A stretch of DNA of 64,000 nucleotides, taken from assembly GCF_024223415.1 (NCBI RefSeq), contig NZ_CP100500.1; one strand, 5' to 3'. This stretch comes from Escherichia coli. Lineage in GTDB: Bacteria; Pseudomonadota; Gammaproteobacteria; Enterobacterales; Enterobacteriaceae. The notes below the pieces were generated by a model, which saw only the letters and a program-made list of their open reading frames with translations, did no database searches and was not told where the DNA came from. Of this stretch, positions 1,843-44,813 are shown piece after piece (position 1 is the first letter of the stretch; the number at the start of each line of letters is the position of its first letter). Both the position numbers and the translations under genes were made by a program.

Positions 1843-1862
1843 AACGTGGCCTCCAAAAAACA

Positions 1863-1883
1863 AACCCCGTACAGGACGGGGTT
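1863..1883 (-). terminator. rho-independent terminator downstream of pssA
   Basis: Hairpin aaccccgt/acggggtt followed by a T-run on the minus strand. Confidence 0.6.
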
Positions 1884-1887
1884 GTGA

Positions 1888-3356: not shown

Positions 3357-6017
3357 TCATGATTCCTCGCGTTGGGCAAGATTTAGCGTAAGCCCAACGA
3401 TCCCCTCTTCGAGCTGGATATCAACGTTAAACCCGAGCTTGCGGGCCAGCGCCACCATGCCACGATTATTTGGCATCGTAATACCATTCAGACGTTGTAG
3501 TCCGTGATCTCGCGTATAGGTAATCAACTTTTCCATTAAGCGTCGACCTAAGCCTAACCCTTTGAGATCCGAGCGAACCAGCACGGCAAATTCGGCATCG
3601 ATGTTATCAGGGTCGGAGATCGCACGCGTGACGCCGAGGATCTCTTCCGTTTGATCAATACGTCGTACCGCTACAAACGCCATTTCCCGATCGTAGTCGA
3701 TCTGCGTCATGTTGGCTAAATCTTCATGGGTAAATTCGTTGATCTCGCTAAAGTAGCGGTAATAAAGATCTTCTTTGGTGACTCGCGAAATGAATTGCTG
3801 AAGTTGTGGCTCATCTTCTGGCAAAATCGGGCGGAACAAGCAGCGTTCACCGTTTTTCAATTCTACCCATTCTTCCAGCTGATGCGGATAAGGGCGCACT
3901 GCCAGCCGACTCTCGTTATCGCCTTCAAACGGCGCGATATCCAGCGTGACATCCAGCGCGTTAAATTCACTGCCAGAAGCCAGCAAAGGATGAATATCCA
4001 GACGCTGAATTTCCGGGCAATCGACAATCAAGTTGGAAACCTGCACCAGAAGCTGGCTCAAGCCTGCAACATCCAATGGGCGTAGCGCACTGCGCGCACG
4101 AATCTTTTTACTTTTGATCCCCTGAATAACCAGATAGCGGGCCAGGTTCATATTCAGCGGCGGCAGTGCGACGACGGCTTGATCTTCAGGACGCCACTCC
4201 ACACCGCCTTCACCCAGCATGATCAACGGCCCAAAAACCGGATCGTGCTCAACCACAACCCGCAACTCCTGAGCGCCAGCACGGTTAGCCATACTTTGCA
4301 CCAACAGGCCGTGGACCCGCGCCTGCGGCCAGGTCATTTTTACGCGATCGAAAATAGCGTTTGCCGCTTGCTGGACTTCATTGGCTGTACGCAGGTACAG
4401 CATGACGCCCTGAACTTCCGATTTATGTGGAATATCCGGCGAACGCAATTTCAGCGCCACCGGATAACCAATCTGTTCGGCAATATGCACCGCTTCGGTG
4501 CTATCACTGGCAATCCAGGTAGGGAGCGTGTTCATGCCATACGCTTGCAGGATGGGCTGAACTTCATGGGTATCGAGCGACGTAGCCCCTTCGGCAATCG
4601 CCTGTTGCAACAGAAGATGCGCTTTTGCGGTATTGGAAGTCAGATTGCTGGGCAACGCCGGCGTTTCGCGTAGTTGCTTCTGATTACGCCGGTACTCCAC
4701 CATATGCATAAAAGCAGTGATGGTTCCTTCCGGGGTACGGTAGGTCGGCAGCCCGGCTTCGCTGAATAAACGTCGTGCCTCTTGCGAGGAGTGCTCGCCG
4801 CACCAGTTCGTCAGCAGAGAAACATACTTGCTGCGGGGATGATGCTTTACCGCTTCAATTAATGCTTGCGCACTTTCTGTTGCGGGAGCAGCGGCGCTGG
4901 GCGAATGAATAACCATCAGCGCATCAAAATCCTGGCTATGGAGCAGAATGTCCAGCGTTTTGACATAATGCTCGCTGCTGGCGTCATCGCGCAGATCGAG
5001 CGGGTTAGAGATTGCCACATGTCCTGGCAGTGCATCGCGCAGTTTCTGGCAGGTTTCTTCGCTTAGTGTTGCCAGCTTGCCATTGCGTGACCATAAGGCA
5101 TCCAGCGCCAGCGCGGCAGGCGCAGCACCGTTGCTGATAATCATCAACCGGTCGCCACGCAGCGGGCGCATATGGCTAAGGGTTTCTACCGCCGAAAACA
5201 GTTCGTGGGTGTCCTGTACCCGCAACAAACCGGCACGCTGAATAGCCGCATCCCATGCCGGGTCCATTCCTGCCGTCGTGTTGAGCAGTCGCTGTGCCGC
5301 CGGGCTACGTCCGCTTTTAATCACCAGAATCGGTTTATTACGCGAGGCACTACGGGCCGCCGAAACAAAGCGTCGCGCGTCGCTTAACTGTTCGAGATAG
5401 AGCAGGATGGCGCTGGTTTTACTGTCGCGTGCCAGATAGTCAAGCAATTCATCAACGTCGATATCCAGGCTGTCGCCGAGCGCAATAAAGTAGGAAAAGC
5501 CCATCTCACGTTGTTGCGCCCAGTCGAGGATGGTGTTGGAGACGGCAGCCGATTGTGAAATAAACGCCAGCTTGCCGCGTTTAATAGGTACCGGCGAAAA
5601 GCTGGCATTCAGACCTTGCCAGGGAGCCAGTAAACCCAGACTGTTTGGTCCAAGCAGGCGCATGTTATGGCGCAGGGCGCAGGCGCGGAGATCTTCGTGT
5701 TGCGATGCCGGGGCGGAAAGAATAATGCAGGTTTTACAGCCTTTCTCGCCGAGCTCTTCCAGAAGAGCAAGATTACGGCTGGCATTGGTACATAAAACCG
5801 CAAGGTCGGGTGTAAAGGGCAAGCTGGCAATATCCGGCCAGGCCAACACACCCAACACCGCTTTCCAGGCTGGCGTCACCGGGAGTACCGGTCCGTTAAA
5901 GCCTCCCGCCAGCAGGTTACGCATCATCAGGTAACCTGCGCGATTGGGTTTCATCGACGCGCCAATTACCGCTATCGATTTTGGTCGCAGTAGTGCTTCC
6001 AGTCCTCGCTGACTCAT
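3357..6017 (-). CDS. patZ: protein lysine acetyltransferase (CoA-ligase-like domains plus C-terminal GNAT)
   Basis: 886-aa ORF recognised as YfiQ/Pka/PatZ. N-terminal CoA-binding and ATP-grasp-like regions and a C-terminal GNAT motif (RSDLKGLGLGRRLMEKL). Confidence 0.95.
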   Translation of the reverse strand: MSQRGLEALLRPKSIAVIGASMKPNRAGYLMMRNLLAGGFNGPVLPVTPAWKAVLGVLAWPDIASLPFTPDLAVLCTNASRNLALLEELGEKGCKTCIILSAPASQHEDLRACALRHNMRLLGPNSLGLLAPWQGLNASFSPVPIKRGKLAFISQSAAVSNTILDWAQQREMGFSYFIALGDSLDIDVDELLDYLARDSKTSAILLYLEQLSDARRFVSAARSASRNKPILVIKSGRSPAAQRLLNTTAGMDPAWDAAIQRAGLLRVQDTHELFSAVETLSHMRPLRGDRLMIISNGAAPAALALDALWSRNGKLATLSEETCQKLRDALPGHVAISNPLDLRDDASSEHYVKTLDILLHSQDFDALMVIHSPSAAAPATESAQALIEAVKHHPRSKYVSLLTNWCGEHSSQEARRLFSEAGLPTYRTPEGTITAFMHMVEYRRNQKQLRETPALPSNLTSNTAKAHLLLQQAIAEGATSLDTHEVQPILQAYGMNTLPTWIASDSTEAVHIAEQIGYPVALKLRSPDIPHKSEVQGVMLYLRTANEVQQAANAIFDRVKMTWPQARVHGLLVQSMANRAGAQELRVVVEHDPVFGPLIMLGEGGVEWRPEDQAVVALPPLNMNLARYLVIQGIKSKKIRARSALRPLDVAGLSQLLVQVSNLIVDCPEIQRLDIHPLLASGSEFNALDVTLDIAPFEGDNESRLAVRPYPHQLEEWVELKNGERCLFRPILPEDEPQLQQFISRVTKEDLYYRYFSEINEFTHEDLANMTQIDYDREMAFVAVRRIDQTEEILGVTRAISDPDNIDAEFAVLVRSDLKGLGLGRRLMEKLITYTRDHGLQRLNGITMPNNRGMVALARKLGFNVDIQLEEGIVGLTLNLAQREES

Positions 6018-6048
6018 ACCGGTCTCCCGCAGAAGTGACCGAATGATT

Positions 6049-6747
6049 TTAAACGCTTTCTAACTGTTCTGCTGTGATGCTACCCAGATGTTGCGTTTTT
6101 CCTGCCAGATAGCGTGTTTTAAAGCGGGTAAAATGCTCGCCTAACCCTGCTGCCGCCCCGGTATCGCCGGCCATATCTAACAGTGCGATGGCTACCTCGG
6201 CAGTACAATATTGGCCTTCAGCCTGGGCTTCACGCAGGCGATAGGCAGAAAGCCGGGAAAGATCGACGGAAATGACGGGAAGATTATCCAGATACGGACT
6301 TTTACGAAACATCTTGCGAGCTTCCGGCCAGGTACCATCGAGCATGATAAACAGCGGTGGCTTACCGGAAGGCGGGGTGAAGATCACTTCCCGTTGCTCA
6401 TCAGCATACGAGGCTGGAAAGACCACCATTGGCTGATAATCCGGATTTTGTACCAGATCCAGCAAATCCTGCGAGGGTTCGGTACGCGACCATTGAAACG
6501 CAACGGTATCAGGTAAAATATCAGCAATCAGACGCCCGGTATTACTGGGCTTCATTGGCTCGGTGTCGAACATCAGCAAACAGAAGCGACTTTTTGCTTG
6601 TGCTGGGGTAATTGTCGAACAGAGACATAATTTCTCTGGCAAAAGACAGCGTTGGCAGCGACGAACGCGATTACCGCGGGCAAGAAAAGGACGTGTTGCG
6701 CGCGCAATACGCTCGGCGCGTAACTGGAGAACAGCGTTTTCGGTCAT
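6049..6747 (-). CDS. tapT: DTW-domain tRNA-uridine aminocarboxypropyltransferase
   Basis: ORF 6049..6798. The ATG at 6747 gives MTENAVLQLRAERI... (YfiP/TapT). CxxC..CxC cluster and DGTW motif. Confidence 0.85.
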   Translation of the reverse strand: MTENAVLQLRAERIARATRPFLARGNRVRRCQRCLLPEKLCLCSTITPAQAKSRFCLLMFDTEPMKPSNTGRLIADILPDTVAFQWSRTEPSQDLLDLVQNPDYQPMVVFPASYADEQREVIFTPPSGKPPLFIMLDGTWPEARKMFRKSPYLDNLPVISVDLSRLSAYRLREAQAEGQYCTAEVAIALLDMAGDTGAAAGLGEHFTRFKTRYLAGKTQHLGSITAEQLESV

Positions 6748-6815: not shown

Positions 6816-7235
6816 TTAAAGAGATTCGTTCAGCCAGCTATCGAACGGCGCTTTCGGTACTGCGCCATTAAGCATGTCGACAACCTGACCGTTTTTGAAA
6901 ATCATGATCGTCGGTATACTACGAATTCCAAAGCGACTGCTCAATTCACGTTCAGCTTCGGTATTCACTTTCACAAAGCGCACTTTACCGCTACGCTCTT
7001 GCGCGACATCTTCAAAAATTGGTGCGAAATTACGGCAGGGGCCGCACCACGGTGCCCAGAAGTCGATCACCACTGGTAGATCATCTTTCAGCAATTTGTC
7101 GAGCGTTTCACCGGTCGCATTAATCACCTCTCCGTCAAACAAGTCGTGACCGCAGCGTCCGCATTTTGCCGCATCTTCGATCCGATCGTCGGGAATGCGA
7201 TTGATGGCCTGACAATGGGTACAAACGGTATTCAT
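6816..7235 (-). CDS. trxC: thioredoxin 2 (N-terminal zinc finger plus WCGPC)
   Basis: 139 aa with CxxC...CxxC followed by the WCGPC active site. Confidence 0.95.
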
Positions 7236-7441
7236 AACTAACCTCGGGATGAGTAAGGAGACTTATCGGCAACGACGCCGGTATGTTTCTAATATGTTAC
7301 ATATTATCGGGGACATTGTTCCAGACAACAATCTGTTTTATTCAATAGGTATGATAGTCGCAGGCTTTGGTACGAAATCATGGCGAACCGCGCGGACTTC
7401 GGGTAATCTGCGCGCTTCGCGCAGCGCTGGTGGAGAAAAGC

Positions 7442-8479
7442 ATGAACGATGAAATGAAAGGTAAAAGCGGCAAGGTCAAAGTGATGTATGTCCGCAGTGA
7501 TGATGATTCTGATAAACGTACCCACAACCCGCGTACCGGGAAAGGGGGCGGGCGTCCAGGAAAATCTCGTGCTGACGGTGGCCGTCGCCCCGCCCGCGAT
7601 GACAAACAGAGTCAGCCCCGTGACCGCAAGTGGGAAGAGTCGCCGTGGCGCACGGTTTCCCGCGCGCCGGGTGATGAAACGCCGGAAAAGGCCGATCACG
7701 GTGGCATCAGTGGTAAAAGTTTTATTGATCCAGAAGTTTTGCGTCGTCAGCGTGCGGAAGAAACCCGCGTCTACGGCGAAAATGCATGTCAGGCACTGTT
7801 CCAGAGCCGTCCGGAAGCGATTGTTCGCGCCTGGTTTATCCAGAGCGTAACGCCACGTTTTAAAGAAGCCTTGCGCTGGATGGCGGCAAACCGCAAAGCG
7901 TACCATGTGGTGGATGAAGCGGAATTGACAAAAGCGTCAGGCACGGAACATCACGGTGGCGTTTGCTTCCTGATCAAAAAGCGTAATGGCACAACCGTGC
8001 AGCAGTGGGTAAGCCAGGCAGGTGCGCAGGATTGCGTACTGGCACTGGAAAACGAATCTAACCCGCATAACCTGGGTGGCATGATGCGCAGCTGCGCGCA
8101 CTTCGGCGTGAAAGGCGTTGTGGTGCAGGATGCGGCACTGCTGGAGTCGGGTGCGGCTATCCGTACCGCAGAAGGCGGCGCAGAGCACGTTCAGCCGATT
8201 ACTGGCGACAACATTGTTAACGTGCTGGATGATTTCCGTCAGGCGGGTTACACCGTAGTGACAACTTCCAGCGAGCAGGGGAAACCGCTGTTCAAAACCA
8301 GCCTGCCAGCGAAAATGGTACTGGTGCTGGGTCAGGAATATGAAGGGTTACCGGATGCCGCACGCGATCCGAACGATCTGCGCGTGAAGATTGACGGTAC
8401 GGGCAACGTTGCCGGGCTGAATATCTCTGTCGCAACCGGCGTTTTGCTTGGTGAATGGTGGCGTCAGAATAAAGCCTGA
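7442..8479 (+). CDS. yfiF: SpoU/TrmH-family RNA methyltransferase with basic N-terminal extension
   Basis: ORF 7367..8479. The ATG at 7442 gives [13 protein letters not shown]..., recognised as YfiF, with C-terminal SpoU motifs. Confidence 0.9.
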
Positions 8480-25176: not shown

Positions 25177-25202
25177 AAATAATACCGTTCTCTTTAAAAA
25201 GT

Positions 25203-25235
25203 AAAACCCCCGAACTGGTAAGGAACGGGGGTTTT
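25203..25235. terminator. acpS terminator hairpin
   Basis: aaaacccccg...cgggggtttt stem. A near-copy occurs in the prophage at 32499-32533. Confidence 0.65.
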
Positions 25236-25244
25236 ACTTTGTAA

Positions 25245-25305
25245 CTTTAATTTAGTGCAGCACGCACCCTCAACAACAGCGATTATGGATCAGGGTAGTT
25301 ATCTT
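25245..25305 (-). ncRNA. ohsC: candidate OhsC antitoxin sRNA (ends approximate)
   Basis: 22 nt at 25255-25276 (gtgcagcacgcaccctcaacaa) recur with 2 mismatches at 25503-25524 in the shoB leader. A minus-strand RNA over the first copy would pair with the leader, which fits the published divergent ShoB/OhsC layout. Confidence 0.35.
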
Positions 25306-26141: not shown

Positions 26142-26346
26142 TTACCGTTAAATCATTTTAAAATCAGTAAGTTGTATCGAGTTTGTATGCTTTACTGTCA
26201 TTAACTTACTGTATGTTGATCCAGTGTATTTAACCTTGATAAACTCAGTCCAGCAACACAAAACCGCAACACATTGCATTTTGTCCCGTAGAAAAGACTT
26301 GTATGTGTGAGCTTGTTTTCTGCGCCTACGCAGATAAGGATTGAGA

Positions 26347-27744
26347 ATGCCGCGCACTGTAACACATAATCCGGATAGCCCCAATAATGACGATGTTTTA
26401 GCCGCTTCTGAAAAATGGGACGCCTGTAAACCCCCCTATACCAGCGCACACATGAAAATCTGTGTTGCTGCCGCCAAAATCATCCTCGCTGCTTCCGGCG
26501 TGGCTCGCCGTTCCAAATACGAAAAAGAGAACTATCTCCGTATCGATTTCAGCAAAGCCGGTAAGGTTACATTTTACGCCGAGTTTCCAAAAAAGATGGG
26601 CCTCAAAGGTAAAAAGCTCGGCGAGTGGCCGGAGCTCGCTATCCAGCTGGCGCGCGAAAAAGCACTAGGTATGGCTGACGGTGGACTGCGGGCAGAGTCC
26701 GTACATGCAGCGCTGGAAATGTACCGGGATGACCTCAAAGCCAAAGTAGCCCGTCAGAAGCTGAGCCCGGACAGTTTCACAACCTATGGGGTGCGTATCG
26801 ACCGGATTAAATCAACGTTCGGCGAGCGCGAGGTGTTCAGCGACGTAACATACAGTCGGCTGGTGGAAGTGCTGGACGAGTGGATCGCCACTCGCTCGAA
26901 CAATAACGCCCTGGAGTTGTTTGCCGAGCTCCGTCGGTTCTGGAAGTTCTGCGCACCTACTCTTTGCAACGGCCGCAATGTTGCCGCCAGTCTGCCAGAT
27001 GATTATGTTTCCTCCCGCGTACAGAAACCCACCCCCACACGGCTTTTTACCGATATTGAGTCAATCGCCCGGCTCTGGCTCAATGTTGCCGCCTGCACCT
27101 CTGTACACCAGAAGAATGCTGTTCGCTTCATGATCATCACCGGAGTTCGTCCGATTAATGTCCATAACCTGCGCTGGGACTACGTTCACGAGGAGGTTGG
27201 TGAAATTGTTTATCCGGAAGGGGTTATCGGCATGCGAGGGGCTATGAAAACACAAAAGGCTTTCCGCCTGCCGATAACGCCTGAGATCCGGCGGATTATC
27301 GACGAGCAGAAAGCCTGGCGTGATTCAGTTCCTGAGTGCAACAGGGATTATGTATTTTTGCAGCCACGTGATCCAATGCAGCCATTTTCAAAACGATCAC
27401 TGGATAAGCTGGTGAAAACATACAGCCCGGACGGGGCTGTAAAAGGAATAAAACATGATGGGACTGTTAAAGGGAAAGACGGTGCATTTAATACGATGTG
27501 CCGTAAATTCCTTAAGAGCAATGTTATTGCCTTGATGAAGGAAAGAGGCTATTCCCGATCAGACCGAAGGGAAATCAGCCTCCTTTGCCTTCACCACTCC
27601 AGCAAGTCAGATGACCCGATGGCAGAACATTACGACTTTTCTGATGAGATTTTACAGGAAGAGATTGCGTTAAAGCGCGAAGCTTTCGAGGCTCACGAGC
27701 GGAGCATACTTGCGCAGGTGGCATTGCTACGGCGGCGAGGTTAA
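26347..27744 (+). CDS. int: tyrosine integrase (P4-like, N-terminal arm-binding-type domain)
   Basis: ORF 26341..27744. ATG at 26347 after AAGGA (a later start at 26453 is possible). C-terminal catalytic region with R (HNLRWDY), LCLHHS and AEHY tyrosine. Confidence 0.85.
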   Translation: MPRTVTHNPDSPNNDDVLAASEKWDACKPPYTSAHMKICVAAAKIILAASGVARRSKYEKENYLRIDFSKAGKVTFYAEFPKKMGLKGKKLGEWPELAIQLAREKALGMADGGLRAESVHAALEMYRDDLKAKVARQKLSPDSFTTYGVRIDRIKSTFGEREVFSDVTYSRLVEVLDEWIATRSNNNALELFAELRRFWKFCAPTLCNGRNVAASLPDDYVSSRVQKPTPTRLFTDIESIARLWLNVAACTSVHQKNAVRFMIITGVRPINVHNLRWDYVHEEVGEIVYPEGVIGMRGAMKTQKAFRLPITPEIRRIIDEQKAWRDSVPECNRDYVFLQPRDPMQPFSKRSLDKLVKTYSPDGAVKGIKHDGTVKGKDGAFNTMCRKFLKSNVIALMKERGYSRSDRREISLLCLHHSSKSDDPMAEHYDFSDEILQEEIALKREAFEAHERSILAQVALLRRRG

Positions 27745-29376: not shown

Positions 29377-30099
29377 TCAGATTAGATCGGCGTAATAGGT
29401 GAAGTTGCCAAACTGCGGATGCCTCCAGCGCTTGCGGTTACCTTTCGGCGGTGTCGATTCGTTTAACAGCTTTTGAGCTGCTTGTTCGATCGCCGGAAGG
29501 TTAACGAGCAATCCCCGAACACCGGTGTCTGAACGTACCGGTATCCTGGCGAAGCCGATCAATTTCCGGCATGTTGAATCAGATAAACCTGTTTTCCATG
29601 CTGCTTTGCTGACGGGGACATATTCACCTTCAACATGAGATAAATTCGCTGGTGCGGCTGGTTGAGAATAGCCAGTTGCATCAAGACAGGCTTTCATTGT
29701 TGCTTCTGCTACGACGCGAGCAAGCTGGACGATGCCGTCGTTGATCGTAATGCTTGGCGCGGGCGCTGCTGATATTTGAACCTGCTCTTTTTCCCTTTCA
29801 AGTTCTTGCCAGCGGTCAACGATTTGTGCAGTGAATTCAGGACAGAGTTGAGCGACTACAACAATGCTATCGCGTCTGCCTTGTTCTCCTTCAAAGTTAT
29901 ATACTTCATCTTTGACTGTGTGGCCTAAGTTATTGATTCTTTCGATAAACGCCGTTGGCGGTTTTCGTATGATATCGCGCTCGACCAGTCTTTCGATGCT
30001 ACGTTTGACGTCACCCGGACGGCTACCTACCAGATCGGCAATCTCCTTATGGGTCATTGAAAGTTGCTTGGTATCGTTTATCAGTGTTAGAGTATTCAT
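29377..30099 (-). CDS. Rha-family phage regulatory protein (antirepressor-like)
   Basis: The N-terminus LSMTHKEIADLVGSRPGDVKRSIERL matches the Phage_pRha pattern. The C-terminal half is uncharacterised. Confidence 0.7.
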   Translation of the reverse strand: MNTLTLINDTKQLSMTHKEIADLVGSRPGDVKRSIERLVERDIIRKPPTAFIERINNLGHTVKDEVYNFEGEQGRRDSIVVVAQLCPEFTAQIVDRWQELEREKEQVQISAAPAPSITINDGIVQLARVVAEATMKACLDATGYSQPAAPANLSHVEGEYVPVSKAAWKTGLSDSTCRKLIGFARIPVRSDTGVRGLLVNLPAIEQAAQKLLNESTPPKGNRKRWRHPQFGNFTYYADLI

Positions 30100-30448: not shown

Positions 30449-30763
30449 ATGAGTCGTGAAGATGCGCAGATGAAGATCCGTTTACCTGCGGAACTGAAAG
30501 AATTATTGGAGAATGCAGCCCGTGCTAACGGTCGTTCGTTGAATGCAGAGGTGCTTCAACGCTTAAGATCTTCATTTCCTGCAATAAATAAGCTGGAAAG
30601 CCAGAATACTCATGCGTTTTTATATCTACGACAAGCTGAAGGTATGGGGCTTGGACGCGAAGCTGAATCTTTGCTTAATGAGTGGGGCAAAAATATTGAA
30701 AAAAACACAGAACTCTTAGAAAGACTGCATGAACTCGTAGAAAATCGTTTGGGGAAAAAATAA
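30449..30763 (+). CDS. Arc/MetJ-type ribbon-helix-helix repressor with C-terminal extension
   Basis: MKIRLPAELKELLENAARANGRSLNAEVLQRL is a classic Arc-family RHH. GAGG RBS. Confidence 0.75.
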   Translation: MSREDAQMKIRLPAELKELLENAARANGRSLNAEVLQRLRSSFPAINKLESQNTHAFLYLRQAEGMGLGREAESLLNEWGKNIEKNTELLERLHELVENRLGKK

Positions 30764-30781
30764 TGTACCGTAACGAAATTG

Positions 30782-30922
30782 TTACTTAAGGTCTTTAGCT
30801 AGCCTGAATAATATTTCTGCATTTACTGAACGCATATTTTTCTTTGCTGTTTTCTTTAACTCCTCCGCTAATGCGCGGGGGATCCGTAATTTAAACTGTA
30901 AGTGCTCATCTGATTTTTTCAC
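30782..30922 (-). CDS. small Arc/Mnt-type RHH protein (46 aa)
   Basis: Not in the ORF track. The GTG at 30922 overlaps the VRR-NUC TGA (GTGA) and follows GGAGGGG. Translation: MKKSDEHLQFKLRIPRALAEELKKTAKKNMRSVNAEILFRLAKDLK. Confidence 0.65.
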   Translation of the reverse strand: MKKSDEHLQFKLRIPRALAEELKKTAKKNMRSVNAEILFRLAKDLK

Positions 30923-31415: not shown

Positions 31416-31440
31416 AAAAAGCCCCTGACAGTGCAGGGGC
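31416..31440 (-). terminator. rho-independent terminator after the Bro-N gene
   Basis: gcccctg/caggggc stem followed by T5 on the minus strand. An identical copy lies at 35509-35535 after the AntA/KilAC gene. Confidence 0.7.
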
Positions 31441-31893
31441 GGGATTGATTTGAATTAACGAGGTAAGGCTGGTGGAATGTATTTGCCGATGCGGTCTTCT
31501 ATCGTTGGCAGAATACACATGCTGTCGTTAAAGCGATCGTGCAGTTTGTAGACCAGTTTCGAATCAGCCATTTCAAGCGCTGGCATTAACTGAGTCTGCC
31601 AGATTTCGTTGATGCGCCGGAAGTTATGACAGATCGCACGAAGATTATTAATGAACATTTCCTTCTCTGCGTCAGTGACTTCTGTTTGTGTTTTCTGAAT
31701 ACGCTTTGTGCTGCCGTTCCGGTAAAAGCGTTCCTGCGCAGCGACAGCCTCATCCACAGTCGGATAACAGCCAACGTATACGTTTTTCTCGCCGTCCCAT
31801 GCATAAGCCCGGTACGGATTGTATTTGCTCCGGTGATGGTAAATCATCTTCGGCAGACATTCCCTGTGCGGCGCCAGTATCGTGGAGGACTGC
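31416..31893. repeat. ~480-bp direct repeat, copy A (terminator plus 3' half of the Bro-N gene)
   Basis: Aligns colinearly with 35509-35987, roughly nine in ten bases identical by eye. Confidence 0.9.
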
Positions 31894-32231
31894 GGAACGG
31901 CGGTATCTTTCTCGATAAGGTCAAGCACCCAGCGACGAAATTCTTTGGCTACCGGAGTCGTTGCGAATATTGCTACCAGGTGGGCACCGCGCAGGGAGAA
32001 AACTCGCACATCTTTTTCACGTAAGCTATTGTTTATTCCGTTGAACCTCATTTTGAGGTTGATTGACATACCCGGGGTAAACTCATCTGCGTTGCGGTTG
32101 TATATCTGGGTGATTTTATCGCCGCGCGAATACCCCAGCGCAGTAGCCAGCGTTGCGGCGGTGAACCACTGCCTGCCGTTGTGTTCGGTAGTTTCGAGAA
32201 CGTGAGATTTGAATACGAGTTGGGTACTCAT
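31455..32231 (-). CDS. Bro-N domain protein with AP2-like C-terminal module
   Basis: ATG at 32231 (AAAGGA RBS). N-terminus FKSHVLETTEHNGRQWFTAATLATALGY is Bro-N. C-terminus YRAYAWDGEKNVYVGCYPTVDEAVAAQERFYRNG is AP2-like and shared with the 35547 gene. Confidence 0.75.
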   Translation of the reverse strand: MSTQLVFKSHVLETTEHNGRQWFTAATLATALGYSRGDKITQIYNRNADEFTPGMSINLKMRFNGINNSLREKDVRVFSLRGAHLVAIFATTPVAKEFRRWVLDLIEKDTAVPQSSTILAPHRECLPKMIYHHRSKYNPYRAYAWDGEKNVYVGCYPTVDEAVAAQERFYRNGSTKRIQKTQTEVTDAEKEMFINNLRAICHNFRRINEIWQTQLMPALEMADSKLVYKLHDRFNDSMCILPTIEDRIGKYIPPALPR

Positions 32232-32446
32232 AGTTTTATGTCCTTTGCAATATTTTGAATTCACCCCTTTTGAGAGGGCGGTCAGGCGCTCAAAACCGTG
32301 CAAAGTCGGCGGGCGTATTTCCCTTACGGGTATTGTATTAGCCTCACGCCCGACCATTGAATTCTCAATATCGTGGACATAAAAAATCCGCATGTCTGTC
32401 GGGTGCGGTTTCCGCTTTGCAAGGTGTTTTGAGCACCATGACGCGG

Positions 32447-32476
32447 AATATAGCCCCGTTAACGCGACATTGTCAA
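32447..32476 (-). promoter_or_regulatory. sigma-70-like promoter for the Bro-N gene
   Basis: Minus strand TTGACA, 18 nt, TATATT, about 215 nt upstream of the ATG. Confidence 0.5.
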
Positions 32477-32498
32477 ACTGAAGAATTTTACGGATAGC

Positions 32499-32533
32499 AA
32501 AAACCCCCGAACTGGTGAGGAACAGGGGTTTTT
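32499..32533. terminator. hairpin terminator downstream of the TIR-like gene; near-copy of the host acpS terminator
   Basis: aaaaacccccgaactggtgaggaacaggggttttt compared with host aaaacccccgaactggtaaggaacgggggtttt (25203-25235). Confidence 0.6.
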
Positions 32534-32591
32534 ACTTTACTACTGATTTCGCGGTACGCTGATCTCAAACAGACGAGATTATCACCAGACT

Positions 32592-32606
32592 TGTAAAGTA
32601 AGCAAT
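32592..32606. repeat. 15-bp direct repeat TGTAAAGTAAGCAAT (left copy)
   Basis: Perfect copy of 33366-33380. Lies 7 nt outside the TIR-like stop codon. Confidence 0.95.
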
Positions 32607-32613
32607 GGGCGGA

Positions 32614-33357
32614 TTAAGATGAAGCGTTCGCTATCTGAGCGTCGCTGAATGTGAAACCCGCCTGTTTAAGACGCTGGATTAAGCGGGGTACTGTCTCCCG
32701 AACATGGTCATTAAAGTTGAGATAAAGAATACCGGCGGCATCAGAAGGCTGCTCAAGGTGTTGTTTCTGCAGGATGACCACGTTACTGCGACCGAGTGAA
32801 GATAACAGCATCCCCATTTCTAAAACTACGTTTTGGCGTGCCCTGGGCTGGGCTGCTTCCTGGCCGTCTCTTTTGGCGTATCCCACATCATCGGGAGTGA
32901 GGAGAACAATGCCGAAACGCGTCGCTGTCCGTCCCTGACCAATTTCACGTTCAAGCTCTTCAATTATCGTAAGCCCGGTCCCACCGGTATTCTGCAAAAT
33001 AAAATGGTCAGGTAATCCAAGCTTATGAAGAATAAGTTCAAGCTGCTCTTTTGCTACATGATCGTGACCGTGAACGATGAAAATCTTTTTTGCTGGTTCT
33101 TGCATCATGACTGGAGCGTTACCCAGGTGTTCATTAATAATGGCTTCAACCTCAGGTTTTGCCGCTTGTGAACCCTGAATCAAAATCGTTCCGGTGTGGT
33201 AAAGCGTTATGATGGCACCATTACTTAAACGATAACAATCATGACCGGTTTTGTTTTCTTCTCCGGTAACATCAAATCCGGATTCGACTAAAAATTGACG
33301 AAAAGTATCGACAGCGTATGGGTATTTGAGTGCCATTTCATTGAGTTCCTGCATCAT
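32614..33357 (-). CDS. TIR-like domain protein (Cap12/PycTIR-type TIR_like) with TBP-fold-like N-terminal domain
   Basis: 247 aa. C-terminal KIFIVHGHD...IVLLTPDDVG...ARQNVVLEMGMLLSSLGR...PSDAAGILY matches the TIR-like family, including the conserved Glu. N-terminal NGAIITLYHTGTILIQGSQ resembles the RNase HIII N-domain. Confidence 0.7.
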   Translation of the reverse strand: MMQELNEMALKYPYAVDTFRQFLVESGFDVTGEENKTGHDCYRLSNGAIITLYHTGTILIQGSQAAKPEVEAIINEHLGNAPVMMQEPAKKIFIVHGHDHVAKEQLELILHKLGLPDHFILQNTGGTGLTIIEELEREIGQGRTATRFGIVLLTPDDVGYAKRDGQEAAQPRARQNVVLEMGMLLSSLGRSNVVILQKQHLEQPSDAAGILYLNFNDHVRETVPRLIQRLKQAGFTFSDAQIANASS

Positions 33358-33365
33358 TGTGTTCC

Positions 33366-33380
33366 TGTAAAGTAAGCAAT
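33366..33380. repeat. 15-bp direct repeat TGTAAAGTAAGCAAT (right copy)
   Basis: Perfect copy of 32592-32606. Lies 8 nt outside the TIR-like start codon. Confidence 0.95.
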
Positions 33381-33410
33381 AGTTAACAAAGTTGCAACGA
33401 CAACGATCAC

Positions 33411-35477
33411 CTAATCTTTTCTGTAACGGTACGCCTCGAATCCTCCGGCGTTTAGTGGAATGCTCGTGGCCCAGTCAGGAACGGTTGCCAGTAACTGGCT
33501 GAGATGTTCTGCTGAGTAATCGGGTGAGTCAGGGGCCTCACTTATAATTTCATCGTGTACCGTCAGCACAATGCTGTAACCGGCATCTTCGATAAGCGGC
33601 ATGTTTCCGGCCAGAACGTCGCGGGCGGCCGCCTGGGTGACGTTCTCCACCAGCTTTCCGCCGTAGGTTTTGAGTCGTTGCCATTTACGCGAATAAGAGT
33701 TAACACCCATATAGGTGATATCCCCTTTTTCGATAACCGGAGACGGGTAGCATACAGCGCGTCCGGATGGTAGCTGTATGCGCAGCCACGCGCCATCGCG
33801 GCGGATTTTAAGATAACCGCAATACAATGTTTTTTGCGGTGTGGCGATTGCAGTGCGGACGGTGCGCTCCAGTTCGTACCAGAAATCGCAGGTCGCCGGG
33901 TGCGCCCTGCGCCACAGGCGCTTGAGCGAGTCACATGCGATGAATACACGCTCGGACAGGCCAAAGGTCGACTTACGTTTAACCGATTCGTCGTACCAGC
34001 TTTTCGCCTCGCGGATAACATCGCGGGGAATGTTTGGCAGTGCGGCGTTCGCCAGCTCGTCGAGATCGAGACCGTAAACCAGAGCAAAAGTGATGAAAGC
34101 CGATACACCACCTCCATAACCCAGACCGAGTTCCATGACTTTACCGATCTGACGCATGTGTTTATCAACATCATCTGGTGCAATATCGAAAGCTTTTGCA
34201 TACGCCAGTTTATATAAGTCCGGACCCGTTCCGGCGTCGTACTCTCTGAATGCATTCAGTTTCCATTCTTCTCCCGCCAGCCATGCCAGCATACGGCCTT
34301 CAATGTTCGACAAGTCACTTACCACCAGTTTTTTGCCTGTTGGCGCGATAATGCAGCCACGTAACGCTGAACTGGTTAGTTCCATGATATTGTCAAACAG
34401 CAGGTCTGCACATCCGGCTTTCAGTGCTTCGATGCCTTCGTCTATTTGTTCCTGTTTTAGTGAAGGGCGGGGAAGGTTCTGGGGCTGGAATAGCCGTCCG
34501 GCCCAACGACCGGTACGTGACGCCCCGCAGAACTGTAGCGTACCGCGTAAGCGCCCGTCGTGGCTTACGCCTTTCATCAGTGCCTTGTATTTACTGGTGC
34601 TGGTAGTACTGGCCTGCAGGCGGATAGCCAGCAGTTCTTTCACGGCAGATGGTAAATTGGGGTCGGCAATACGACGTTCCAGAGTACTGCGTTGCATGTC
34701 TGGTAGCTCCACACCGTAGGATTCAACAATGTGCTTAATCAACGCGTCCCGTTGTGTGGCTGCCTGCACTTCGCCATCAGTCATTTCCTGTGTACGCTTT
34801 GCCAGGCGCTTTTGCTCCTGGTCTACCGCTTCGATCGCAGCGCGCGCGAGTTGAATGTCCATGCAGACGCCCCGGTCGTTGATCTGCTGATCACGATGCC
34901 AGAGTGCCAGTTCTGTCCCCTGATAATTCCACTTCGGCAGACGTTTATAGACTTCGCGCATTGCCTCGATATCCAGTCCGGCGTAAGCAACAAAGCGCCG
35001 CCATTCTTCCGGGTGGGTTTTGCTGGTGGCCCGGCGCAGTTTGCTGTTTTTCGGGCGTGGTTTGCACAGTAGCTGAATTAGTGACTTGCCTTCTTTATCC
35101 TTCGCTTTGTCCTGCGGGACGCCCAGCACTTCGCAAAGAGCGCCCAGCGCCCCCGGAAGACCATGCGCCAGCGCCTGCACCATTGTGTCGCGCCAGCGTT
35201 CAGTAGCTGGTGACATGTCTGGCATACAATGACGAAGTATCGTGCGGTCAAAGTGCGAATTGTGCGCCCAAACCTCCACATCCGGGTTTTTGAGTGCGAG
35301 ACGTAATTCCGGGGGGATTTTTTCGCCTGCGGTCAGGTCCCACACCTGCACGGGATCGTTATTGATGGCCCAGGCAAAAAGCATAATTTCAGCGCCTTCT
35401 GCATATGCGTGGGTACCGTTTTTTATCGGTATTTCAGAGAAGGTTTCAAGATCGAGCCAGAGAATGTTTGCAGGCAA
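33411..35477 (-). CDS. family A DNA polymerase with 3'-5' exonuclease domain
   Basis: 688 aa. Exo motifs [22 protein letters not shown]. Pol motifs DLSNIEGR (A), [16 protein letters not shown] (B), VHDEII (C). Confidence 0.9.
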
Positions 35478-35508
35478 AACAGGACCCTCCGTAAATTAAA
35501 CGGCTACA

Positions 35509-35987
35509 AAAAGCCCCTGACAGTGCAGGGGCGGGATTGATTTGAATTAACGAGGTAAGGCTGGTGGAATGTATCTGCCGATGCGGTCTTCTATGGTCGG
35601 CAGAATGCACATGCTGTCGCTGAAGCGGTCATGCAACTGGTAAACCAGTTTAGAATCCATTTTTTCGAGAGCAGGCATTAACTGCGCCCGCCAGATTTCG
35701 TTGATGCGCCGGAAGTTATGACAGACGGCGCGGAGATTGTTGATGAACATTTCCTTCTCTGCGTCAGTGACTTCTGTCTGTGTTTTCTGAATACGCTTTG
35801 TGCTGCCATTCCGATAGAAGCGTTCCTGAGCAGCAACAGCCTCATCCACGGTTGGATAGCACCCTACGTAAACGCTCTTCTCTCCGTTCCATGCGTAGGC
35901 TCTGTACGGGTTGTATTTGCTCCGGTGATGGTAAACCATCTTCGGCAGACACTCCCTGTGTGGCGCCAGTATCGTGGAGGATTGCTG
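35509..35987. repeat. ~480-bp direct repeat, copy B (terminator plus 3' half of the AntA/KilAC gene)
   Basis: Colinear with 31416-31893. Includes an identical terminator hairpin at 35509-35535. Confidence 0.9.
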
Positions 35988-36308
35988 GTGCAGTTTGCGT
36001 TCGCACTCGATGAAGTATCGGCGGATCTGGCGGCCTTTTTCGTTGCGCTCCACCATCGCCAGTTCTTTGGCCGTGTCGAGGGTGAGGTGGTAGTCCTTAC
36101 AAAGAACATTTTTACGCTTTCCAGTTTTGGAAAACGTTACGATATAATCCTGATTTTCAACGAATTCATAGTCTGCAATTCGTGATGTAATCCACGCTGC
36201 AAACACTTTCCCTACCCCAAGGAATGCGTGCAGATCGCGAGCATTGCAGAGCAGGGTGGTTTCGTTGGCGATAGCGCCGTTGAAAACGGGGATGAGTTGA
36301 GTTGCCAT
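35547..36308 (-). CDS. AntA/KilAC-type antirepressor-like protein with AP2-like C-terminal module
   Basis: ATG at 36308 after GAGGT. N-terminus NARDLHAFLGVGKVFAAWITSRI...LTLDTAKELAMVERNEKGRQIRRYFIECE is ANT/KilAC-like. The C-terminal ~150 aa are shared with the Bro-N protein. Confidence 0.7.
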   Translation of the reverse strand: MATQLIPVFNGAIANETTLLCNARDLHAFLGVGKVFAAWITSRIADYEFVENQDYIVTFSKTGKRKNVLCKDYHLTLDTAKELAMVERNEKGRQIRRYFIECERKLHQQSSTILAPHRECLPKMVYHHRSKYNPYRAYAWNGEKSVYVGCYPTVDEAVAAQERFYRNGSTKRIQKTQTEVTDAEKEMFINNLRAVCHNFRRINEIWRAQLMPALEKMDSKLVYQLHDRFSDSMCILPTIEDRIGRYIPPALPR

Positions 36309-36470
36309 CACAGTTACCTCTAACGGTGAAATTCACCGCCACCACTGAGTTGCAAATCTCATATGGGTGGCGAACTGACGAGGTTTGCAATACCGGCGTT
36401 AGAGGAAACCGGCGCGCCGAAGCGCCCCCGCCAGCCCGCCATAATGCGAACGTGGCAAAGCTTGCGACAA

Positions 36471-36492
36471 TAAAAAAGACGCTGGCGCGTCT
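36471..36492 (-). terminator. rho-independent terminator inside the noncoding island
   Basis: agacgc/gcgtct stem followed by T6 on the minus strand. Confidence 0.6.
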
Positions 36493-36651
36493 GGTGTCGC
36501 CCCTAACAATTCCGGGTTGCAAATCCCGATCTCCATTTGGGAGATTCGGTGAGCATAAACCGGAAGGGGGCGATGAGTCAATATCGGGGTAGCAGGGCGA
36601 CTGGGTGCTAACCAGAACAATACAGGTAGCTCCGGGCATATTCCCCTTTGC

Positions 36652-36679
36652 AAAAACACCCGGCGTTTAACCGGGCGTC
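36652..36679 (-). terminator. rho-independent terminator after the DUF2815 gene
   Basis: cccgg/ccggg-cored hairpin followed by T5 on the minus strand. Confidence 0.6.
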
Positions 36680-36691
36680 TGTGAAGCAGGA

Positions 36692-37240
36692 TTAAATCAG
36701 TGCTTCAGCATCAGCACCTTCGCTGATATCGTCGAAATCGTCAGCGCTTGCCACTCCGCCGCCAGCGAATGCATCGCCGTCTCGCAGGAACTGGACTCCG
36801 CCGAGTGAGGCATTAATGCGTTTACCGAAATTATTGTCCTGTGCCCAGATATCGATAACGGCGTTTACATAGCACCCTGCATAGGGACGTCCATCAGCCT
36901 GAGTAAGTGGCGAACGATCGCGATCAAGAACAGCCGGGCGCGCTTTGTTAGCAGCATTCAGGAAGAAATTACCGGGGAAACCTTCATACTCTGCTTTTTC
37001 ATCGCCGTCATGCAGGCACAGATTGAGTTTCTTCTCCAGTTGGTTATAAACAGCCTCCCACTTCTCTCCCCATTTTTCCTTTGCGACCTGCTTCATTGCT
37101 TTACGGATTTCTTCCAGTTGTGGGTGTTCGGGAGACATTAAAAATACAGCGGAGAAACGCGGATCGCCTTCGCCGTTTACAGTTTTAGCTTCAAACAGCG
37201 CAGGAAAAGCCAGACGAACATTGTTCAGCTTCAGTTTCAT
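36692..37240 (-). CDS. DUF2815-family phage protein (SSB-like OB fold)
   Basis: The N-terminus MKLKLNNVRLAFPALFEAK and an acidic C-terminal tail (DDFDDISEGADAEALI) are typical of DUF2815 and SSB tails. Confidence 0.7.
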   Translation of the reverse strand: MKLKLNNVRLAFPALFEAKTVNGEGDPRFSAVFLMSPEHPQLEEIRKAMKQVAKEKWGEKWEAVYNQLEKKLNLCLHDGDEKAEYEGFPGNFFLNAANKARPAVLDRDRSPLTQADGRPYAGCYVNAVIDIWAQDNNFGKRINASLGGVQFLRDGDAFAGGGVASADDFDDISEGADAEALI

Positions 37241-40266: not shown

Positions 40267-40890
40267 TTATCTTTTGCGGCGGTAAATACGATGTTCAATC
40301 ATGACCCCTACGATCTGTAAGGGGACATCTGCACTTCGTAGCACGGGATAGTCGGGATTCAGGGGGACCAGTTCAAAATCATCAACGCCGATACCCAACG
40401 GGCGGTATTTTTTGAAAGTGGCCTCATACCCGTTGTTCTTTGCAACGACGAATTCGCCAGGCATGGGGCATAAATCCGGGTCAATTATTACAATATCGCC
40501 TTCCTTAAACTCCGGTTGCATACTGTCACCATCTATCCGCAGGGCGAAGCAGGACTCAGGTACGTCGGAATCCGCGAGAACGTATTCCATATTTCCATCC
40601 ATGTCCGTAGCGTCTTTTGCTTCCGTTAGCGCACCGGCCTGTACGTAACTGAGGATCGGGATGCGGCGGGTACTTATTTCCGCCAGGGGCATTATATTCC
40701 TGCCATTTAAAAGCCAGTCGGGACTGCATTTCAGTGCCTTTGAAAGCTCTATGATGTTGCGGGGCTTCCGGGTCTTTCCGCTTTCAATAGTCTCAATGGA
40801 TTGCTGGCTGACCCCCGCGATTGCTGCAACTTCTGTTTGTGTCATCCCGAGTTCTGTACGGCGTGCTTTAAAGCGTTCTGCAAGTGACAT
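40267..40890 (-). CDS. cI: CI-like repressor (HTH_XRE plus S24 LexA-like peptidase)
   Basis: ATG at 40890 after GGGGG. N-terminal HTH (LGMTQTEVAAIAGVSQQSIETIESG). C-terminal GDSM serine and FKK lysine. Confidence 0.9.
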   Translation of the reverse strand: MSLAERFKARRTELGMTQTEVAAIAGVSQQSIETIESGKTRKPRNIIELSKALKCSPDWLLNGRNIMPLAEISTRRIPILSYVQAGALTEAKDATDMDGNMEYVLADSDVPESCFALRIDGDSMQPEFKEGDIVIIDPDLCPMPGEFVVAKNNGYEATFKKYRPLGIGVDDFELVPLNPDYPVLRSADVPLQIVGVMIEHRIYRRKR

Positions 40891-40928
40891 GGTGTACCCC
40901 CTGATTCCTGATTTTTTGCTCTCCCTTA

Positions 40929-40990
40929 TTAATACAATTTTTGTTGTAGTTGACAAACATCATTTATTGTCGCTAAATACCACATAAATT
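40929..40990. promoter_or_regulatory. divergent cI/cro promoter-operator region
   Basis: Plus strand: TTGACA (40950-40955), 18 nt, TAAATA (40974-40979). Minus strand: TTGTCA, 16 nt, TATTAA. Palindromes TACAAnnnnnnTTGTA and GACAA..TTGTC, plus an AAATACCACATA site. Confidence 0.55.
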
Positions 40991-43687: not shown

Positions 43688-44386
43688 ATGCTGACAGCAA
43701 TCAACAACGAAAAAATTGTCATCGCAAGGGACGCGCAGAAACCGGGAATTTTCGCCTGCCCGGAATGTGGTGAAGTTGTCACCCTGCGGAAAGGTTCGGT
43801 GAAAGTTCACCATTTCGCCCATCGCAGCACCACATCCTGCGGTTACGGGAAAGGCGAATCTGAGTTGCACATGGATTTGAAAATGCAGGTCTATGACGCG
43901 TTGAACGCGCATCGTGAGGTGGAATATGTTGCGATGGAGGTCGCAGTCGGTGATGTTCGTCCCGATGTGCTGGCGATTATTCGGGGTCAGAAGGTTGCTT
44001 TTGAGATTCAGGTTAGTTCGCTGAGTATTGAAGACCTCTATCGCCGCACGGTTGCGTACGCAGCTCAGGACATTGCGATGATCTGGATCCTGCACTGGCC
44101 TGAAGGTACTGCACTGGACCGGCTTTATCACCCTGCATCATGGGAGCGATGGTTACATACTTGCGGAATGGCAACTCTGTACTTCTGGGCGGGCGATGGC
44201 TGGGTCAGGCCAGTGCGTCTGGGAAACCGACAACATGGATTACAAAGAGCACCTCGTGCCCATCTGGTTGATGATTTCGAACCAAAGCGAACAGGCGGGT
44301 GGATTAAAGGTGATTTTCTGATACCTGCTCGCTTTATCTGGAATCGTGTGCGACGGCAAAAACGTAGAGGTCAGAGCTATGCGTAA
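43688..44386 (+). CDS. CoiA-like PD-(D/E)XK nuclease family protein
   Basis: ATG at 43688 after AGGGGG. CPECG...HFAH...C, then GESELH...E...RPDV...FEIQVS...W pattern as in the competence protein CoiA family. Confidence 0.6.
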   Translation: MLTAINNEKIVIARDAQKPGIFACPECGEVVTLRKGSVKVHHFAHRSTTSCGYGKGESELHMDLKMQVYDALNAHREVEYVAMEVAVGDVRPDVLAIIRGQKVAFEIQVSSLSIEDLYRRTVAYAAQDIAMIWILHWPEGTALDRLYHPASWERWLHTCGMATLYFWAGDGWVRPVRLGNRQHGLQRAPRAHLVDDFEPKRTGGWIKGDFLIPARFIWNRVRRQKRRGQSYA

Positions 44387-44813
44387 TATTCAACAGGTTT
44401 TAGAGCGCTGGGGTGGCTGGGCTGCCAATAGCAACACCACAGTGAGCTGGGCTCCAATAGCGGCGGGATTTAAAGGGCTGGTAGTCAGCAGCCTGCCTGG
44501 CAGGCTGAGTTGCTGCGACGACGATGGCCTGATTATCGATGCTTGCGTCTGTCGGCTGCAGCAGGTCCGTAAGCCTGAGGAACTGGACGTCATTATGCTG
44601 TACTACGTCTACGGGTTAAGCAAACGTGAGATAGGACGGCGGCGTCGATGTTCTGAAGGATTTATCCGCCAGCAGTTGCAGGTAGCTGAGGGATTCATTG
44701 AGGGGTGTCTCTGCATGCTGGGTGTGAGCCTTCAGATGGATCCTGAGGTCGAAATTCAAAGGGATGAAAAAAGTATTAGTGCGCTACGCAAAAACTGCGC
44801 TACGCTGGTATGA
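44379..44813 (+). CDS. Q: late-gene antiterminator Q
   Basis: MRNIQQVLERWGGWAANS...AAGFKGL...CCDDDGLIID matches the recalled Q family of 21/933W-type lambdoid phages. Confidence 0.85.
   Translation: MRNIQQVLERWGGWAANSNTTVSWAPIAAGFKGLVVSSLPGRLSCCDDDGLIIDACVCRLQQVRKPEELDVIMLYYVYGLSKREIGRRRRCSEGFIRQQLQVAEGFIEGCLCMLGVSLQMDPEVEIQRDEKSISALRKNCATLV

Follow-up and report, generated by a model that had tools for sequence, protein, structure and literature searches.

The stretch of DNA analysed here (the window: 64,000 nt of an Escherichia coli genome, NZ_CP100500.1, to which all coordinates refer) contains a prophage in which two otherwise different regulatory-type genes, both on the minus strand, end in the same C-terminal tail and the same terminator. 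The two genes lie on either side of the family-A DNA polymerase gene (polA, 33411–35477, minus strand), a backbone gene of a leftward array that runs in the order DUF2800 nuclease, DUF2815/Enc34-type SSB, polymerase, ANR-like protein, VRR-NUC, two Arc-like proteins, Rha-like protein and SNF2 helicase. A gene with an AntA head occupies the position between SSB and polA (slot A), and a TIR gene followed by a gene with a BRO-N head occupies the position between polA and the ANR-like gene (slot B). The direct repeats formed by the ends of the AntA and BRO-N genes are probably the invariable 3' parts of a pair of paralogous antirepressor cassettes of the P1 immI type, each self-contained, inserted in slots that flank polA.

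Exact local alignment places the repeat at 31416–31893 (copy B) and 35508–35985 (copy A), i.e. 481 columns of which 425 are identical (88.4%), with a single compensated 3-nt indel pair; a separate repeat search gave 300 nt at 90%. The colinear direct repeat that the initial annotation had described at the DNA level is thus real, with its second copy (given there as 35509–35987) off by 1–2 nt. Identity is uneven, being 100% over the first 67 nt, 98% over roughly columns 250–300 and 76–80% elsewhere, and the perfect-identity runs between the copies measure 67, 36, 35, 29, 25 and 20 nt. At such length and identity the similarity is far beyond chance. Read on the minus strand, each copy consists of the last 145 codons of its gene, the stop codon, a 13-nt spacer and a terminator hairpin (35513–35532 after the AntA gene, 31421–31440 after the BRO-N gene) with a GC-rich stem of 7 bp, GCCCCUG/CAGGGGC, around the loop CACUGU (−14 kcal/mol), followed by a run of five U. 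The common C-terminal module (134 of 145 amino acids identical) and the identical intrinsic terminators had both been recognised correctly.

The identical first 67 nt, together with the several other identical tracts, might suggest that the 3' end of one gene was recently duplicated as a segment in this genome, without function and with one copy decaying. This is extremely improbable in view of the divergence between the two tails: the synonymous divergence (dS) is 0.70 and the ratio of nonsynonymous to synonymous divergence (dN/dS) 0.055, and the copies are therefore old paralogs that both evolve under purifying selection, rather than the product of a recent duplication. Moreover, both open reading frames (ORFs) are intact, each has its own promoter, small RNA (sRNA) and matched target, and 5 more E. 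coli genomes have the layout with two cassettes, in differing combinations of heads.

The unit around the AntA gene, cassette A (~1,090 bp, 35508–36598, minus strand), is composed of a promoter, an isrK-like leader, a C4 RNA, the AntA-tail gene and the terminator, and appears to be transferable as a whole, since over ~1,090 nt it is 94.6–96.1% identical to the slot-B cassettes of VL40, VL7S7, 89-3156 and CFIAFB20190157. Its gene (35547–36308, starting at an ATG at 36308, with an in-frame GTG at 36311 also possible) encodes an AntA head followed by an AP2-like domain and a helical hairpin. In Pfam the head matches AntA (PF08346, E 9.6e-25), which upholds half of the 'AntA/KilAC' label that this gene had received; the other half fails, as KilAC (PF03374) has no Pfam match in either protein. 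Upstream of the gene lies a C4 antisense RNA (36363–36446, minus strand; Rfam RF01695, 70.6 bits against a gathering score of 45; all Rfam matches were scored against the curated gathering thresholds). In STEC435 a 58-amino-acid ORF is annotated over the C4 region in RefSeq. Pairing sites were identified through searches for exact complements outside the sRNA itself, full-length RNAduplex having been dropped (it yields long, unrealistic duplexes and ignores intramolecular structure). The target b2, CGUUAGAGG (36317–36325, minus strand), lies on the Shine-Dalgarno sequence, 6 nt before the start, and is the perfect complement of positions 42–50 of the C4 loop (CCUCUAACG), and the target a2, AUUUGCAA (36350–36357, minus strand), is the complement of the single-stranded C4 junction UUGCAAA. 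The junction pairing (UUGCAAA/UUUGCAA) occurs twice, at a2 and at an upstream copy. These upstream target copies (a1 at 36517–36524; b1 at 36500–36507, which pairs via G-U wobbles; both minus strand) are located inside an isrK-like leader RNA (36472–36545, minus strand; RF01394, 50.9 bits against a gathering score of 50) with its own terminator at 36477–36492, and a sub-threshold Rfam match to c4-a1b1 overlaps this leader. The promoter-like site, TTGACT-N18-TATGCT, is found at 36552–36581 on the minus strand (9/12). A further hairpin followed by five U (36652–36679, minus strand, terminator-like, −22 kcal/mol, z −3.5) stands right after the SSB gene, upstream of cassette A; it is perhaps not part of the cassette, because it sits at the edge of the backbone homology, which resumes at 36642–36692 in relatives, and it would break the putative SSB-to-polA operon even without the cassette.

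Cassette B (~1,065 bp, 31416–32480, minus strand) is built in the same way, from a promoter, a leader with target copies and a terminator, an sRNA-Xcc1, the BRO-N-tail gene and the terminator. Over 31416–32455 (~1,040 nt) it is 81–82% identical to the slot-A cassettes of VL40, VL7S7 and RMDEC465, and homology between slots sets its 5' edge at ~32455–32480. The gene (31455–32231, minus strand) encodes a BRO-N head, an AP2-like domain and a helical hairpin; its start at 32231 agrees with the homologues, and a longer ORF up to 32393 is unlikely to be coding. Pfam confirms the head as Bro-N (PF02498), just as it confirms AntA whichever start (36308 or 36311) is taken in the other gene. Between promoter and BRO-N start lies an RNA of the sRNA-Xcc1 family with a C4-like fold (32272–32355, minus strand; RF02221, 79.8 bits against a gathering score of 53), whose loop CUUUGCA is the complement of the target UGCAAAG at 32243–32249 (minus strand), which overlaps the AAGGA Shine-Dalgarno sequence 12 nt before the ATG; a junction-like site, UUCAAAA, is present at 32253–32259 (minus strand). 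The leader, an analogue of isrK (32381–32434, minus strand), holds the target copies GCUCAAAAC (32426–32434) and UGCAAAG (32415–32421) as well as a hairpin with six T (32381–32408). The promoter TTGACA-N18-TATATT (32447–32476, minus strand) matches at 11/12 positions, the highest score over the 14 kb scanned, and six related cassettes all have its −35 hexamer unchanged, so that, with the intrinsic terminator at its end, the BRO-N gene is indeed the autonomous promoter–gene–terminator unit that had been proposed.

Evidence for the function of these RNAs comes from comparison with relatives. In 12 E. coli loci and in 5 from other genera, no cassette with the module lacks a C4 or Xcc1 RNA, and Rfam finds neither in the two module-free loci (L003 and L004). 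Eight types of cassette can be told apart by their sRNA loop, and in each of them the site near the ribosome-binding site (RBS) is the exact complement of that loop: CTTTGCA/TGCAAAG (loop/target) in cassette B of the window, CTAGTAG/CTACTAG in VL40, CTGGTAG/CTACCAG in RMDEC465, CTTGCTG/CAGCAAG in GF4, CATAGAT/ATCTATG in slot B of STEC435, CTATACG/CGTATAG in KY171, CCTCTAACG/CGTTAGAGG in the C4/AntA type, and TTCCTCTTAAC/GTTAAGAGGAA (with the junction GTGCTAA/TTAGCAC) in slot A of 89-3156. The upstream copy of the target varies in step with the loop. Covariation was judged by exact matches within each cassette; in the alignment of six cassettes, two are shifted by 1–2 columns. Eight independent, compensated specificities constitute strong comparative evidence that the pairing of loop and RBS would be functional, and that the two cassettes of the window would be regulated separately, because their sRNA/target pairs differ.

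Some relatives carry additional RNAs of this kind. An extra sRNA-Xcc1 without a matching RBS target downstream is found upstream of the cassette in three loci (L001 5075–5163, L008 8004–8089, L007 2662–2747), and these copies look like leftovers of a replaced cassette, from nested or tandem insertion in the same slot. In prophages of Symbiopectobacterium the stretch from VRR-NUC to the SNF2 helicase contains a further, third BRO-N gene gated by sRNA (L018 10942–11396, L020 11088–11668). The RNA is either Xcc1 or isrK together with C4, in the latter case with c4-a1b1 above threshold; the shared tail has no tblastn match in these third genes. The equivalent place in the window is taken by the Rha-like gene (29377–30099), where Rfam detects no RNA.

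Because C4-family RNAs and complementary RBS sites are found upstream of both genes, the units can be assigned to the P1 immI type. The cassettes have one common order, i.e. sigma-70-type promoter, leader with target copy and terminator, C4-family RNA, RBS copy of the target, variable head, constant tail and terminator, and it is because tail and terminator are the invariant part of this cassette family that the 478-bp repeats exist. By analogy with P1/P7 c4-ant and Gifsy-1 isrK-anrP, a cassette would be transcribed in the lysogen and the sRNA released from the leader, upon which the sRNA would pair with the ribosome-binding site and prevent the antirepressor from being translated; the sRNA could in turn be counteracted by leader RNA, which holds the upstream copy of the target. 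Transcription in the lysogen would be stopped by the 3' terminator before it enters polA or the replication genes further downstream (ANR/VRR-NUC).

The C4-family RNAs, which the initial annotation had missed, also change how the terminators are read. It had been reasoned that terminators within the array imply an antitermination mechanism, which is not required, as insulation of lysogenic cassette transcription suffices. If transcription in the lysogen is needed for the repressing RNA, the terminator at the 3' end is needed as an insulator, and this need would account for the terminator being the part of the repeat that is best conserved and homogenised by conversion. Most simply, then, the terminators would be insulators for units that are transcribed in lysogeny. 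At least six terminator-like hairpins occur in the leftward array (after SSB, isrK, AntA, TIR and BRO-N, and in the leader of cassette B), and the Q-like antiterminator of the prophage (44346–44813) belongs to the rightward late region.

Several points weigh against the interpretation as RNA-gated antirepressor cassettes. Antirepressor activity, the target repressor and sRNA-mediated repression are here inferred by homology. The promoter of cassette A is weak at 9/12, and its isrK match is borderline. No ORF like icd, through which translation is coupled in P1, is found in the 51-nt gap between the 3' end of C4 (36363) and the AntA start (36311). The palindrome UUGCAA of the C4 junction also occurs in the target of cassette B, and therefore complete orthogonality of the two cassettes is not proven. 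Finally, no promoter was found between the terminator at 35513 and the polA start at 35477, 30 nt further on, so that efficient terminators would leave the expression of polA during lytic growth unexplained.

The prophage backbone is present in 373 of 5,426 complete E. coli genomes, and an isolated phage, vB_EcoM-606R2, has it too. When 15 annotated relatives are compared, a variable slot is seen on each side of polA, which can be empty or contain a plus-strand ORF, SIR2, TIR, Nmad5, or Ant/BRO-N genes, and the same cassette is found in slot A or slot B depending on the genome. One and the same tail carries at least 7 heads. The 3' boundary of the cassette falls exactly at the T-run of the terminator, beyond which the sequence is specific for the slot (the start of ANR, or the Shine-Dalgarno sequence and TTG start of polA). 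A megablast search of phage records finds related heads in Stx phages, for BRO-N together with sRNA and promoter, and these matches end at the head/tail junction or within ~35 nt of it; the linker QSSTILAPHRECL is therefore a second recombination boundary. Recombination at the tail and terminator and at the head–tail linker would thus shift heads and sRNAs between slots and phages. In having their own promoter and terminator, and in being missing from slots that are empty or otherwise filled (L003, L004, phage vB_EcoM-606R2), the cassettes show the traits of morons; their composition is not distinct, with a GC content of 0.52 and 0.49 (range 0.49–0.52) versus 0.52 for the backbone.

Within genomes, the identity between the two copies ranges from 88% to 100%. 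In STEC435 they are 100% identical over 475 nt even though the AntA heads differ, and in the window the two copies have 15 substitutions in common that are absent from all nine distinct modules of relatives and that cluster at columns 13–64 (the terminator loop, CACTGT versus CTCAGC, the spacer and the last codons). From these two observations it follows that non-reciprocal exchange between resident copies happens, and the sequences make it evident that gene conversion has homogenised short tracts, in particular the terminal 67 nt.

The same exchange bears on the proposal of the initial annotation that the repeats recombine, by which 4,092 bp with the polymerase and TIR genes would be excised and the two genes fused into a biologically meaningful deletion variant. 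The substrate is adequate, since the repeats are direct, 478 bp long and share identical runs of 67, 36 and 35 nt, where the minimal processing segment for RecA recombination is roughly 25–30 nt, and the 15 private substitutions and the identical copies of STEC435 demonstrate that exchange between copies has occurred. However, polA is kept in all 13 module-bearing E. coli genomes and in 4 of the 5 loci from other genera, and the loci of Symbiopectobacterium and Erwinia with an intact module all retain it. The sole locus without polA (L021) has a truncated module and no ANR junction, and is therefore a decay remnant and not the predicted fusion; a polA-deleted fusion was looked for and not found in any module-bearing locus. 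Loss of polA would probably cripple phage replication, the dS of 0.70 means that the copies have long coexisted or diverged without collapsing, and their 12% divergence would draw suppression by mismatch repair. Such an excision is thus very unlikely to be what the repeats signify.

The fold of the shared tail is relevant to what the proteins may do. Pfam, applied to the isolated module, returns nothing except a spurious match to Imelysin, and no AP2 even at E ≤ 10. A profile of the module, on the other hand, matches over its positions 2–55 the proteins P0028 and P0033–P0035 (E 2e-11 to 4e-9), in which PF00847 is above threshold, and it matches a region of the HNH endonuclease family phrog_99 with an E of 9e-5. 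In the AlphaFold model the AP2-like part consists of three strands and a helix with a predicted local distance difference test (pLDDT) score of ~90; the accepted model was built from an alignment of 31 sequences (pLDDT 83) and supersedes one from 12 sequences, which gave 30–70 in the module. The five best Foldseek matches are to a plant AP2 domain, with an E of only 0.08–0.9. The AP2-like unit that the initial annotation had suspected is thus supported by the profile match to PF00847-positive proteins (E 1e-9 to 1e-11), with a compatible AlphaFold model and weak Foldseek matches, and the tail as modelled would be an AP2-like fold plus a helical hairpin and is not KilAC. Conservation in the protein is highest in the AP2-like core. 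A phmmer search of PDB sequences with the module finds nothing, and a tblastn search of 50,697 phage records gives no match; a match of the tail profile to DksA in the PDB was dismissed as chance (18 residues, E 0.3). The tail is found on one prophage backbone across three genera. For the P22 antirepressor C-terminal domain P22_AR_C (PF10548), the tail of the window has no direct match, 5 of 12 related tails do match (best E 1e-4), and hhalign aligns the tail to residues 225–249 of P22 Ant, inside the domain, at a sub-threshold probability of 15%.

The same anatomy could serve a protein in which head, AP2-like domain and oligomerising hairpin together form a sequence-specific transcription factor that acts on phage or host promoters, rather than an inactivator of a repressor. 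AP2 domains bind DNA, the BRO-N and AntA heads are both related to DNA-binding folds of the KilA-N type, and it is the AP2-like core that is most conserved. In addition, the confinement of the tail to a single backbone in three genera fits a DNA or protein target specific to that backbone, and the KilAC domain is missing from both proteins. Set against this are the organisation of the cassettes, which is that of known antirepressor loci (P1 immI; Gifsy-1 anrP, PMC4825925), the weak, transitive similarity of the helical tail to the C-terminal domain of the P22 antirepressor, and the PHROG families of both heads, which are annotated as anti-repressor. A role as transcription factor is thus possible but rather unlikely, and the reading as antirepressors is retained.

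It is tempting to go one step further and to regard the constant tail as a lineage-specific adaptor that links interchangeable heads to a backbone-specific target (the CI-like repressor, an operator or the replication region). The DNA of tail and terminator would then also act as a 'handle' for recombination whose copies gene conversion keeps similar, and by which heads and their sRNAs are exchanged as units between slots and phages, providing at least 8 orthogonal RNA-gated specificities of immunity and anti-immunity, two per genome. This is speculative, and we consider it distinctly unlikely in this full form.

As for the remainder of the window, positions 1 to ~26 kb are E. coli chromosome (many strains match it at 100% over lepB-rnc-era, and Rfam recognises the rseC antisense RNA, rncO and ohsC), and from the integrase gene (26341–27744) onward the DNA is the lambdoid-style prophage; its further genes include a LexA-like CI repressor (40267–40956), a primase-helicase, the Q-like antiterminator and lysis genes. 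Two convergent genes of the Arc family of ribbon-helix-helix proteins (30449–30763, plus strand, and 30782–30922, minus strand) lie ~0.5 kb from cassette B and recall the control of ant by arc/mnt in P22 immI. The TIR cargo (32499–33357, minus strand) consists of the gene (32614–33357, a CAP12/Pycsar-type TIR, PF10137) and a terminator hairpin (32499–32533, −20.8 kcal/mol); with its own strong terminator, it is a unit separate from the cassettes, bracketed by the repeats. Its GC content is 0.46 versus 0.52 for the backbone. Other defence-type genes in the polA-flanking slots are the SIR2 (5008–6510) and TIR (2041–2802) genes of L004, and a slot of L009 holds Nmad5 (7057–7695); the slots are hotspots in which both antirepressor cassettes and defence-type genes (TIR, SIR2) gather. 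Immediately 3' of the TIR gene Rfam gives an ohsC-like match (32494–32569, minus strand) of 44.5 bits, below the gathering score of 50, whose hairpin is identical at 31 of 33 nt to that of the host ohsC (25198–25274), ~7 kb away near the end of the prophage. A type I toxin-antitoxin system was considered here and rejected, only the 33-nt terminator hairpin being in common with the host ohsC, and no shoB-like hydrophobic small ORF is present beside the match.

The polymerase locus itself also varies. In several relatives the gene measures 2,835 nt versus 2,067 nt in the window, and longer or altered loci are found in L005 (4774–7608), L006 (4280–7114), L011 (3482–6316), L001 (5274–8109) and L022 (3394–6342); in VL40 the gene is in two pseudogene pieces, and in Erwinia it is interrupted. 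The extra sequence that the polA of the window is missing looks like an intein or other insertion. In STEC435 (L002 7690–7733) and STEC1590 (L010 6345–6390) a sequence resembling the leader and start of polA (CCGTTTAATTTACGGAGG...TTG) follows the terminator of the slot-A cassette, set apart from the real polA start by a plus-strand ORF of 600 nt, and a 5' fragment of polA may have been duplicated upon insertion of the ORF or the cassette. Genes of the HNH or NUMOD4 homing-endonuclease type occur in relatives between DUF2800 and SSB or upstream of DUF2800 (L005 9413–9928, L002 10770–11288), and the window is without them.

The locus is an example of the known shuffling of phage modules and involves no new mechanism. 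What it adds are a previously undescribed tail (AP2-like fold plus helical hairpin, outside Pfam and confined to one prophage lineage), the eight sRNA/target pairs, and the evidence for gene conversion within a genome. With respect to annotation, intergenic 'leaders' of this kind would be C4-type sRNAs with identifiable targets, and proteins labelled 'Ant' and 'BRO-N' have a common tail. The eight co-varying sRNA/RBS pairs may represent a natural set of orthogonal translational repressors, and a test bed for heteroimmunity of the P1 type outside P1. For the evolution of prophages, the locus combines conversion within a prophage with the movement of whole cassettes between two hotspots beside polA.

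Among the closest of the known systems is immI of P1 and P7 (c4 - icd - ant1/ant2), for which 10.1101/2020.03.17.996009, citing Citron & Schuster 1990, gives the order a1b1 - c4 - a2b2 - ant. In both systems the leader of the antirepressor transcript carries an RNA of the C4 family (RF01695), whose two single-stranded elements have their complements both at the RBS (a2b2) and in a duplicated site upstream (a1b1), and cassettes differ in co-varying sRNA/target pairs, as P1 does from P7; the protein of cassette A has the AntA domain (PF08346) in common as well. The cassettes of the window differ in having no icd-like coupling ORF and in their C-terminal part (AP2-like plus helical hairpin), in being present twice per genome and within the replication module of an unrelated prophage of lambdoid type, and, for cassette B, in the combination of the sRNA-Xcc1 family with a BRO-N head. 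In Gifsy-1, isrK, a stable RNA of ~80 nt and anrP follow one another, and the isrK terminator is partly read through (PMC4825925). The order isrK - orf45 (STnc1160) - anrP matches that of the window from 36545 to 35547, whereas the tail of the antirepressor is unlike that of anrP. Short IsrK activates translation through orf45 there, the output being the antiterminator AntQ (PMC4825925).

In the APSE phages of Hamiltonella, isrK and c4 are located beside a BRO-N gene and sRNA-Xcc1 upstream of another regulator, the a'/b' regions of c4 match the region upstream of BRO-N and the 3' end of the polymerase gene, and the presence of a polymerase intein varies (10.1101/2020.03.17.996009). As in the window and its relatives, C4/isrK or Xcc1 RNAs are thus paired with BRO-N, AntA or Rha-type genes, a DNA polymerase gene is involved, and the polymerase insertion polymorphism is similar; the type of phage and the host are different, and no shared tail or two-cassette direct repeat is reported for APSE (10.1101/2020.03.17.996009). 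The immI region of P22 (mnt / arc - ant, sar, terminator) is likewise an antirepressor unit controlled by antisense RNA, with its own terminator and situated among unrelated genes. The helical tail of the window weakly resembles P22_AR_C, and the Arc-family genes (30449–30922) lie close to cassette B; sar, however, is a true cis-antisense RNA unrelated to C4, and the head of P22 Ant is P22_AR_N. More generally, domain shuffling in phage regulators of the KilA-N/Bro-N/Ant/Rha type was reportedly described by Iyer, Koonin and Aravind in 2002, and phage 'morons' are said to go back to Juhala and co-workers in 2000. The lineage of the window differs from these precedents in that its tail is confined to one lineage and lies outside Pfam, and in that the GC content of the cassettes is like that of the backbone, and it agrees with them in that heads and tails recombine at the linker and that some otherwise collinear phages have the autonomous units while others lack them.

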